A stretch of DNA of 55,782 nt from Actinomycetota bacterium (GTDB lineage Bacteria > Actinomycetota > Actinomycetes > S36-B12), in the NCBI GenBank assembly GCA_947449945.1, contig CANFTO010000003.1, forward strand, positions 1-55,782, given 5' to 3'. This document shows positions 7,638-35,347 of the stretch, one piece after another. The notes beneath the pieces are model-generated. The model made no database searches and was not told the DNA's origin. It saw only the letters and a list, made by a program, of their open reading frames with translations. The stretch's first letter is position 1, and the number at the start of each line of letters is the position of its first letter. Both the position numbers and the translations under genes were made by a program.

Positions 7638-8020
7638 AGTGATTCCAATGGCGCTGTTGACGAGCGGTCTAGATTGAAACTGAAACGTGAGAAGAGAGGG
7701 ATGGGTACAGTGACCTGCTGGCTCAAATTCACGGTAATCATTTGATCGCCTTGCGTCATCGTGAGTTCAGCATCGGGTGCTTGAGTGTGTGCTTGCAGTT
7801 GAATGTCTTCAACGGAAATGCCACGTGCTAAACCACGAGCAAGGTCGTGAGCAGTGTCCGCTAGATGTAGGGCAGTCATTCCTGTCTGGAGTCCAGTAAG
7901 CAGCAGAACCGTGAGAGCAATCAGGACCGGAATCATCATTGCGGTTTCTATAACTGCGCTTCCTCGATCATGTTGGGTGGAGTCGAGTAATCCTCGACTC
8001 CACCCACGCCACATCACCAT
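7634..8020 (-). CDS. TadE-family minor pilin
   Basis: DRGSAVIETAMMIP (G|xxxxE) followed by a hydrophobic helix. Confidence 0.8.
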   Translation of the reverse strand: MVMWRGWSRGLLDSTQHDRGSAVIETAMMIPVLIALTVLLLTGLQTGMTALHLADTAHDLARGLARGISVEDIQLQAHTQAPDAELTMTQGDQMITVNLSQQVTVPIPLFSRFSFNLDRSSTAPLESL

Positions 8021-8200
8021 TTAGAAGAATGCCGAGAGTGCGGTGCTCATGACTTTCCAAATTAAGTTGCGCACTTCCGCACTCGTTAAGAGCTTGATCA
8101 TGACTCCGCCAAGACCCGCAGCAGCAACGGTGCCAACTGCATATTCAGCGGTTGTCATACCGCGATCATCGAATCGGATGCACTGCAAATGCTTTTTCAT
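8021..8200 (-). CDS. Flp-like pilin, DUF4244 family (Rv3656c-like)
   Basis: DDRGMTTAEYAVGTVAAAG signature; AAGGAA RBS before ATG 8200. Confidence 0.85.
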   Translation of the reverse strand: MKKHLQCIRFDDRGMTTAEYAVGTVAAAGLGGVMIKLLTSAEVRNLIWKVMSTALSAFF

Positions 8201-27746: not shown

Positions 27747-30073
<2,327 letters not shown>

Positions 30074-30119
30074 GAGGGAGAAGTCTACCCGGCAAAACGT
30101 AAGCGTTTTCCTCAAGGGT

Positions 30120-30158
30120 TTATCCACAAACACACACCCAGAAGGGCCCTGTCCACAG
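30120..30158 (+). promoter_or_regulatory. Paired DnaA-box-like direct repeats
   Basis: TTATCCACA (30120-30128) and CTGTCCACAG (30149-30158), cores 29 bp apart. Confidence 0.55.
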
Positions 30159-30271
30159 TTCTAGATTCGCCATGGACGCAGCGAATAGGGCCGACTTACC
30201 TTCACCGGATCTCCCCTTTCGGCATGGGTGCGCAACGTCGGGCGCACCTTTGCTGGGAGAGGAGGTGAAAG

Positions 30272-30394
30272 GTGGATCGGAAATTCGATCAGGGAAGGCG
30301 AAGGGCCCTGATGTACAGCCAATTGTTCATCGCAGTGGCTTGCATCATCAGGGCCCTCGCGGACCTCATTCGGACCCTTAAGGGCACCGGGTGA
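30272..30394 (+). CDS. Unannotated 40-aa hydrophobic/amphipathic peptide, candidate type I toxin
   Basis: AGGAGG (30260-30265) 6 nt before GTG; MDRKFDQGRRRALMYSQLFIAVACIIRALADLIRTLKGTG; alternative ATG at 30311 gives 27 aa. Confidence 0.6.
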   Translation: MDRKFDQGRRRALMYSQLFIAVACIIRALADLIRTLKGTG

Positions 30395-30434
30395 CCTTTC
30401 GGGGCGGCGAGGGGACCTTTCAACCCCTGTCGCC
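30295..30434 (-). ncRNA. Candidate antisense (antitoxin) sRNA of about 140 nt
   Basis: Minus-strand promoter just upstream; 5' hairpin; 12-bp perfect inverted repeat 30302-30313/30346-30357 as a likely 3' stem; ends are approximate. Confidence 0.45.
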
Positions 30435-30436
30435 CC
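30401..30436. terminator. GC-rich hairpin after the small ORF; could also end recR transcription
   Basis: GGGGCGGCGAGGGG...CCCCTGTCGCCCC; no clear U-tract. Confidence 0.55.
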
Positions 30437-30439
30437 ACA

Positions 30440-30468
30440 AATATAAAACGAAAGTTCTCAGAGTTCAA
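30440..30468 (-). promoter_or_regulatory. Near-consensus sigma-A promoter pointing antisense into the small ORF
   Basis: TTGAAC (30468-30463), 17 bp, TATATT (30445-30440). Confidence 0.6.
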
Positions 30469-30495
30469 GATCAGCAGAGCTAGAAAGCCTTGCAA

Positions 30496-31089
30496 TTAAA
30501 CGCGTCGTCGGCCTTCGAAGGCGCGCCCCAGCGTGACTTCATCTGCATATTCAAGGTCGCCGCCAACGGGTAGGCCGCTGGCCAAACGCGACACTGCGAT
30601 GCCTAGCGGAGCAATCATCCGCGCCAAATATGTTGCTGTTGCTTCACCTTCAAGATTTGGGTCAGTTGCCAGAATGATTTCTACGATGGTGGCATCAGAA
30701 AGTCGCGCCATAAGTTCGCGAATGCGCAAGTCATCAGGGCCGATACCTTCAATTGGGCTAATGGCTCCACCTAGCACGTGATAACGACCCTTGAATTCAC
30801 GAGTCTTTTCAATCGCGACCACATCTTTTGATTCTTCAACCACGCAAAGAATTGTTTGATCACGACGAGGATCGCGGCAGATCCGACATTCTTCTTCTTC
30901 AGCAACGTTGCCACACACCGCGCAGAAGCGAACCTTTTCTTTCACTTCACGTAATGCATCAGCTAAGCGCATCACATCAGTTGGATCAGCAGAAAGAATA
31001 TGGAATGCAATGCGCTGGGCACTCTTTGGGCCAACACCTGGAAGTCGACCTAACTCATCAATGAGATCTTGAACAATGCCTTCGTACAT
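30496..31089 (-). CDS. recR: Recombination protein RecR
   Basis: [12 protein letters not shown]4 zinc finger, [20 protein letters not shown]. Confidence 0.97.
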
Positions 31090-35084: not shown

Positions 35085-35104
35085 GTGCTGATCCTCTACT
35101 CATA

Positions 35105-35197
35105 AGGGACCCCCCGCACACCCGCCAGAGCTCACCTGTCCTTGCTGCCTTCCGGCCCTGGGGAGGTTCAGCGAGATAACGCCGCACGAGGGGTCGC
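35105..35197 (-). ncRNA. ffs: Signal recognition particle RNA (4.5S)
   Basis: CAGGGCCGGAAGGCAGCAAGG helix-8 motif inside a long GACCCC...GGGGTC hairpin. Confidence 0.93.
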
Positions 35198-35259
35198 GAT
35201 AACTGTACGGGCAGGGAGCAGATTGAGGCCAACTCGCACCGGACGGTAGGCTCCTCCAC

Positions 35260-35347
35260 GGAGGATTCGCCTAGTGGCCTATGGCGCTCGCTTGGAAAGC
35301 GGGTTGGGGGAAACCCCTCAGGGGTTCGAATCCCCTACCCTCCGCCA
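35260..35347 (+). tRNA. tRNA-Ser(GGA)
   Basis: GGAGGAT acceptor, CTCGC-TTGGAAA-GCGGG anticodon arm, long variable arm, GGTTCGAATCC, encoded CCA. Confidence 0.95.

Follow-up and report, generated by a model that had tools for sequence, protein, structure and literature searches.

A probable type I toxin-antitoxin-like family in Actinomycetota with a predicted doubly closed mRNA and upstream DnaA-box-like motifs

What occupies the 422-nucleotide (nt) gap between recR and ask on contig CANFTO010000003.1 of an Actinomycetota bacterium (GCA_947449945.1; S36-B12 lineage)? The window analysed here is the whole 55,782-nt stretch of that contig, in which dnaX, recR, ask and asd all lie on the minus strand (Pfam) and the gap runs from the recR stop codon (30496) to the GTG start of ask (30073-30071). 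An original prediction, made from the letters alone, read the gap as a type I toxin-antitoxin locus, with a 40-amino-acid (aa) open reading frame (ORF), a ribosome-binding site masked from both sides and an antisense promoter. Comparison with related genomes (G000, the window's own genome; g1, its genus; f1, its family; other G numbers, compared genomes) supports this reading, and the region is probably one copy of a new chromosomal type I toxin-antitoxin-like family. Every prediction that sequence can address came out positive: paralogues, conservation of the ORF, structural covariation, a conserved antisense promoter, and no match in Rfam or Pfam. The module would thus add a new family to an established class of systems, one for which we found no examples described in this phylum.

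The ORF (30272-30394, plus strand; GTG start, TGA stop) is supported by the ORF list, comparison, codon analysis and structure prediction, and encodes a cationic, predicted helical 40-aa peptide with the charged head and hydrophobic or amphipathic tail first described for it (net charge +5; best 19-residue Kyte-Doolittle window 1.93). A Shine-Dalgarno site, AGGAGG (30260-30265, plus strand), stands 6 nt before the GTG. The protein is kept in relatives across six genera: by our reading of the alignments, 22 of 29 examined copies have an intact Shine-Dalgarno site, start and stop (matches in G150a, G165 and G141, at contig ends or not examined, fall outside the 29). All intact copies place an ATG, GTG or TTG start 5-8 nt past a GGAGG-type site, and insertions and deletions in the ORF are multiples of three. 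The 18 peptides compared have 37-41 residues and net charges between +1 and +6, and 11/18 reach 1.6 or more in their best 19-residue Kyte-Doolittle window. Common to the genera is a basic head, then a hydrophobic stretch, then the motif RA[LI]xxLxxTL, and AlphaFold2 with the family alignment predicts a single helix over residues 4-38 (mean predicted local distance difference test score 79). Three peptides scanned against Pfam gave one match up to E = 10, which was unrelated (PTA_PTB, E = 0.2); NCBIfam (3 peptides) and PADLOC (4 peptides) gave none, a PDB profile search returned designed coiled coils only (E at least 0.037), and the protein atlas held nothing at or above 0.9. Among 5.8 billion protein clusters 31 matched, none with a functional name (hypothetical or unannotated where named), and a profile search of 1.84 billion representatives gave 11 matches, ten of them short members of the family. 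An identical peptide occurs in one case under the NCBI label 'Candidatus Nanopelagicales bacterium'. This 40-aa gene family is invisible to current annotation.

How would such a peptide be kept silent? Alignment of 18 copies from the six genera places a TAnnnT hexamer 73-79 nt upstream of the start in 18/18; in the window this predicted -10 hexamer of the peptide mRNA is TACCTT (30197-30202, plus strand), with a transcription start site (TSS) expected near 30208-30210, and no -35 element is conserved at this sense promoter. The minimum free energy (MFE) is -119.3 kcal/mol (z = -6.15) for the mRNA predicted from it (30209-30432) and -107.5 kcal/mol (z = -6.75) for the opposite strand; each is far more stable than shuffled sequence, with 0/200 shuffles folding as well in either case. 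The predicted mRNA consists of three domains. Domain I (30209-30266, plus strand) joins the 5' end to the Shine-Dalgarno region across a stable hairpin (30226-30249): the 5'-terminal anti-Shine-Dalgarno stretch AUCUCC (30209-30214) pairs with GGAGGU (30261-30266) around the GGGUGCGC/GCGCACC hairpin. Masking from the 5' side, as originally proposed, therefore stands in a slightly different register. The outer 5' arm then assigned to it, ACCTTCACC (30198-30206), does not: it overlaps the -10 hexamer of the peptide gene, so much of it is probably untranscribed. Domain II is closed by pairing between GAAAGGU (30267-30273, plus strand), made up of the spacer and the leading GU of the start codon, and the complementary element ACCUUUC (30394-30400, plus strand), which lies 3' of the stop codon and before the terminal hairpin, so that the ORF and its internal hairpin are enclosed. 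This masking from the 3' side had also been foreseen; it appears in the MFE fold and in the duplex test below, and the second masking copy then suggested (30415-30422) is located in the loop of the 3' hairpin. The hairpin inside the ORF (30302-30357, unstranded; helix 2) has 12-nt arms, AGGGCCCTGATG and CATCAGGGCCCT, that are 100% complementary, and could serve as a terminator stem on the minus strand. Domain III is the terminal hairpin (30401-30436, unstranded; helix 5): the predicted mRNA ends with it, and its complement would be the 5' stem-loop of the predicted antisense RNA. With the TSS set 6 nt after the -10 hexamer, 10/10 folded homologues show the same three domains, including the 5' pairing of domain I, and the Shine-Dalgarno site and start codon are paired in every MFE fold.

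These structures covary, as the original prediction had anticipated. RNAalifold on a MAFFT alignment gave 45 consensus pairs, 29 of them with compensatory changes, and 94.9% of cells in these pairs are paired, against 83.0% in shuffles and 36-48% in slid controls. For four of five pair measures, 0/500 shuffles reach the observed value, and for the number of further pair types 5/500 do. Compensatory changes affect 13 of 16 pairs in helix 1 and 8 of 13 pairs in the terminal hairpin, where 99.1% of cells are paired. The pairing of domain II was tested apart because MAFFT mis-registers this long-range interaction. In each copy the spacer/start window pairs over 6-9 bp with the 3' element of the same copy, by at least seven different sequence solutions; cognate duplexes are stronger than non-cognate ones (mean -9.99 versus -6.57 kcal/mol), and 0/20000 permutations match this (13 unique combinations). 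Because related copies are not independent, the covariation and duplex figures overstate significance, and the variety of spacer/3' element solutions is the stronger argument. On the question of strand, G-U cells, valid on the peptide strand only, number 86 against 20 A-C cells, and in 15/18 copies the peptide strand has the greater stability.

The opposite strand carries the predicted second half of the module. The minus-strand promoter TTGAAC-17-TATATT (30468-30440), on which the original prediction had relied, is the sole promoter-like site found by a promoter scan of 29900-30700 (shuffled mean 0.2 sites), and would start an RNA near 30434. It is conserved: a TTGnnn-17/18-TAnnnT pattern, mostly TTGACA-18-TACATT, lies on the opposite strand past the stop codon and terminal hairpin in 18/22 copies; the complement of the terminal hairpin begins 2-4 nt beyond it. 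The other four copies comprise one cut by a contig end and those of G006, G067 and G164, which show the promoter by eye with a shifted anchor. In the ten copies measured (by pattern matching, which missed the window's own copy), the putative antisense TSS and the end of the ORF hairpin are 124-127 nt apart, consistent with a predicted antisense RNA of about 125-135 nt (30300-30434, minus strand). Copies in g1 also contain a 26-30-aa minus-strand frame (window 30310-30395) that opens with ATG behind a weak AAGGG; g7 and the other genera do not conserve it, and it was rejected as an antisense-strand ORF.

Paralogous copies, expected of such a family, were found in several genomes and some form tandem arrays. 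G000 carries three copies, the extra two in tandem on contig C34 directly after lexA (BLAST, nhmmer); G009 carries five, four in tandem after lexA and one at recR-ask; and G010 carries two after lexA and one at recR-ask. Module neighbours vary by genus and include lexA, luciferase-like, LacI, Lsr2, HAD, ilvD and NrtR genes. A ten-peptide genus profile matched 18/173 genomes of the family, and a 16-sequence profile matched 17/172 other f1 genomes in 6/16 genera; same-genus carriers are 4/12 other genomes. The 16-sequence profile matched 0/217 genomes from nine other families of the order, 0/400 other genomes in a class-wide sample matched, and tblastn against plasmid and phage collections found no match to the module. 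An estuary metagenome run (X14) contains a 726-nt contig that spans 29852-30570 with 32 differences and has the cassette at the same recR-ask site, so carriers exist beyond the source lake. A further 176-nt contig (X9) covers 30240-30414; this metagenome evidence consists of contigs only, from four DNA runs, in which uncovered parts and the 'skips 543-635' joints (38-44-letter sides, 85% likeness) are uninformative. A search of sequencing runs listed 20 DNA runs and no RNA run as carriers, which has no bearing on expression.

Seven of the 29 examined copies are degenerate. The 5' domain, Shine-Dalgarno site or start is gone in G006, G015b, G143 and G150c, the stop codon is gone in G067 and G164, and the first lexA copy of G000 has a 1-nt deletion. 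In this last, lexA-proximal copy (C34 about 7745-8026; L002 1434-1715), the deletion, seen by comparison with G010 and G009, falls within the ORF hairpin and shifts the frame of the C-terminal motif; the copy is either a pseudogene or an assembly error. Several degenerate copies among those at L032 (G015), L018 (G143), L038 (G150), L013 (G006), L022 (G067) and L048 (G164) retain the antisense promoter and terminal hairpin. The pattern of decay is as would be expected if the peptide were the costly part.

Upstream of the sense promoter lie two DnaA-box-like 9-mers: a distal one, TTATCCACA (30120-30128, plus strand), with its TCCACA core beginning at -74 relative to the -10 hexamer (-74/-75 in the other g1 copies and in the g10 copies), and a proximal one, CTGTCCACA (30149-30157, plus strand), whose core starts 45 nt before it. 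A TCCACA core stands 44-46 nt before the sense -10 in 14/16 copies with an identifiable -10, and the stretch separating the boxes from the -10 is not conserved. Of the two exceptions, G012 has ATCAACAG in that position, and in G006 the 5' region is replaced and the -10 candidate is doubtful. The DnaA-box consensus is TTATCCACA/TTGTCCACA. The 9-mer T[TGC][GA]TCCACA occurs 131 times in G000; its densest cluster (five in 600 bp) lies just after dnaA on contig C113, with further copies upstream of dnaA, and the dnaA region is where actinobacterial origins are located. From this clustering beside dnaA, the motif is the DnaA box of this organism. The four-copy lexA array of G009 (L007 1750-2850) contains 11 TCCACA cores in about 1.1 kb, denser than the G000 dnaA cluster, and may itself serve as a DnaA-box cluster. 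An exact 11-nt direct repeat, GAAGGGCCCTG, occurs at 30141-30151, abutting the proximal box, and at 30300-30310, as the 5' arm of the ORF hairpin. No LexA box (GAAC-N4-GTTC palindrome) was seen in the promoter alignments, which were inspected by eye with no formal scan. That DnaA switches the peptide gene, with boxes upstream of a promoter lacking a -35 tying a growth-arresting peptide to the state of the replication initiator, is a tentative idea, less likely than not. A literature search found no paper combining 'type I toxin' and 'DnaA box'.

How might these parts work together? In the type I reading, the full-length mRNA would be stable and translationally closed; by analogy with aapA, domain I could act co-transcriptionally and the 3' element as the final lock. 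The antisense RNA would be made in excess, pair, through the complementarity that cis-encoding provides, with the 3' untranslated region and the 3' two-thirds of the ORF, and block or destroy messages that open. The peptide, once made, would insert into the membrane and arrest growth, and DnaA occupancy would tune transcription of its gene. Several observations weigh against this scheme. Hydrophobicity is marginal in 7/18 peptides (best window 1.07-1.52), particularly in copies from the lexA arrays. The peptide falls outside every known type I toxin family searched (Hok, Fst, Ldr, Ibs, TisB, DinQ, TxpA and others in Pfam and NCBIfam), and the nearest named atlas clusters, DinQ-like and TisB, score only 0.76, within the chance range. 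No canonical intrinsic terminator was found for the sense or the antisense RNA, and the candidate antisense terminator is followed by tails that are U-rich only to a moderate degree. The ratio of nonsynonymous to synonymous substitution rates (dN/dS) is near 1 in the two most divergent pairs (0.99 and 1.04), and the coding signal is moderate rather than strong because RNA structure constrains synonymous sites.

Is the peptide harmful at all? The most serious alternative, distinctly less probable than a toxin, keeps the small protein and its cis-antisense RNA and makes the product a non-toxic regulatory or structural small protein, possibly of the membrane, such as a DnaA-controlled cell-cycle factor. 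All of the architecture fits this alternative too, and the weakly hydrophobic peptides, the conserved DnaA boxes, which suggest physiological control, and the lack of copies in the plasmid and phage collections speak for it. However, the module is patchily distributed (17/172 genomes; 4/12 within the genus), it occurs in tandem arrays, its insertion sites vary, and 7/29 copies are degenerate, which is more in keeping with something accessory or selfish than with a housekeeping factor. A doubly closed ribosome site together with an antisense promoter stronger than the sense promoter is also typical of harmful products, and the toxin-like reading is preferred here.

Could the 40-codon frame instead be a by-product of conserved helices in a non-coding structured RNA repeat or a pair of small RNA genes? 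Such an origin would agree with the two dN/dS values near 1, with folding on either strand that is far more stable than in shuffles, and with the placement of much of the ORF inside conserved helices, where the AGGGCC stem falls on the invariant R-A codons. Against this, a GGAGG-type site stands 5-8 nt before an ATG, GTG or TTG in all intact copies, the frame is open in 22/29 copies across six genera with insertions and deletions in threes, and the opposite strand has no ORF that is kept across genera. Variation peaks at third codon positions (entropy 1.16 versus 0.85 and 0.87), replacements in the C-terminal motif are conservative (D/E, I/L/V, K/R), and dN/dS is 0.29-0.63 in ten pairs below 0.7 and 0.76 in one inter-genus pair. 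A non-coding origin is thus unlikely.

The cassette as a whole (30113-30490, unstranded) is a roughly 370-nt insertion between the recR stop codon and the ask promoter. In G006 and G012, which belong to the same genus, recR is separated from the ask promoter by about 45 nt, the cassette is absent and homology to the window restarts at about 30112; as the site is empty there, 30113-30490 is an insertion and not an ask leader. Insertion relative to empty sites, varied contexts and multiple copies per genome would suit a miniature inverted-repeat transposable element (MITE), a mobile repeat without host function in which promoters and ORF are remnants. Yet the cassette has no terminal inverted repeats, for which reason this candidate was rejected, and both promoters, the Shine-Dalgarno site, the ORF and compensated helices persist in six genera, which argues for selection on expression and not on transposition alone; a MITE is very improbable. 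At gathering thresholds, Rfam 15 places no family in the recR-ask gap, a permissive scan of 29950-30650 gave a single chance match (E = 7.2), and four homologous loci gave two chance matches, both sub-threshold. Of the findings named as able to overturn the original prediction, those open to sequence analysis, namely lack of conservation, an Rfam match or a MITE, did not materialize. Least credible of all is a 5' leader or cis-regulator of ask (riboswitch or attenuator): although the minus-strand promoter points toward ask and the region is highly structured, this was rejected since in G006 and G012 recR is followed directly, without any cassette, by ask with the same TAGACT promoter. Copies of the cassette also lie downstream of lexA and next to unrelated genes, and Rfam gives no match. 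In the window, the TAGACT -10 hexamer lies 8 nt before the ask GTG with no Shine-Dalgarno site (30071-30087, minus strand), as in G006 and G012, and ask is probably leaderless and driven by its own promoter. The Rfam matches in the window lie elsewhere, near the dnaX-recR block: a bacterial small signal recognition particle RNA (35102-35198, minus strand; 63.8 bits) and a tRNA (35260-35344, plus strand; 44.9 bits).

Which known systems does the preferred type I reading resemble? In hok/sok, the hok mRNA is closed by a 5'-3' long-distance interaction and the antisense RNA is transcribed from a stronger promoter; the module shares the small peptide, toxic there and presumed so here, a compact mRNA predicted to be stable and closed by 5'/3' pairing, and an antisense promoter stronger than the sense one. 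It differs in having no mok-like coupling frame, an unrelated peptide (no Pfam match) and a host from another phylum. Sok also lies 5' of the hok ORF (PMC8594479), whereas the predicted antisense gene of the module is on the 3' side. Occlusion of the ribosome-binding site by a 5'-3' long-distance interaction is described as a general mechanism with reference to Gultyaev et al. 1997 and Han et al. 2010, and is detailed for aapA/IsoA of Helicobacter pylori, with anti-Shine-Dalgarno hairpins forming during transcription for aapA3 and hok (PMC6733600). Like the module, aapA/IsoA has a short peptide (about 30 aa; 90-nt ORF) and several chromosomal copies; like the predicted message of the module, its full-length mRNA is inert through the 5'-3' interaction, together with local co-transcriptional anti-Shine-Dalgarno hairpins (PMC6733600). 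IsoA, in contrast, lies within the mRNA region and covers its 5' part (PMC8594479). The far anti-Shine-Dalgarno element of aapA masks the Shine-Dalgarno site itself, whereas in the module the 3' element masks the spacer and start and the 5' end masks the Shine-Dalgarno site; aapA/IsoA has no sequence similarity to the module.

Loci of the TxpA/RatA, BsrG/SR4 and related Bacillus families and of SprG/SprF mostly lie in prophage-like regions, and we know of no DnaA boxes in them. Their peptides are unrelated to that of the module, which has no phage or plasmid match. The predicted layout of the module is that of these families, with convergent genes and a 3'-side antisense RNA overlapping the ORF, and antisense RNAs of the Gram-positive type I families lie on the 3' side (PMC8594479). 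TisB/IstR-1 and DinQ/AgrB of Escherichia coli have no significant sequence similarity to the module. Their toxin promoters are under LexA, a global DNA-related regulator, and the module has DnaA-box motifs. Their primary transcripts are inert (PMC5066626), like the predicted closed mRNA of the module, and their antitoxin genes lie 5' of the mRNA without overlap (PMC8594479).

The T1TAdb paper covers 24 families without once using the word Actinobacteria (PMC8594479), and a survey stresses the narrow, phylum-bound range of type I families (PMC5367252). Our literature search found no type I family described in Actinobacteria (29 papers mention both, none of them with the two together in title or abstract), although the supplementary tables of Fozo et al. 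2010 could list candidates. If the reading presented here is correct, the module would extend the type I class to Actinomycetota with strong comparative support for its RNA architecture, and it supplies natural covariation data for a double translational lock. It also links a candidate type I locus to DnaA boxes, an unexpected feature; if the tentative DnaA switch is real, dormancy in streamlined freshwater Actinomycetota would be tied to the state of replication, and the tandem arrays would also titrate DnaA.

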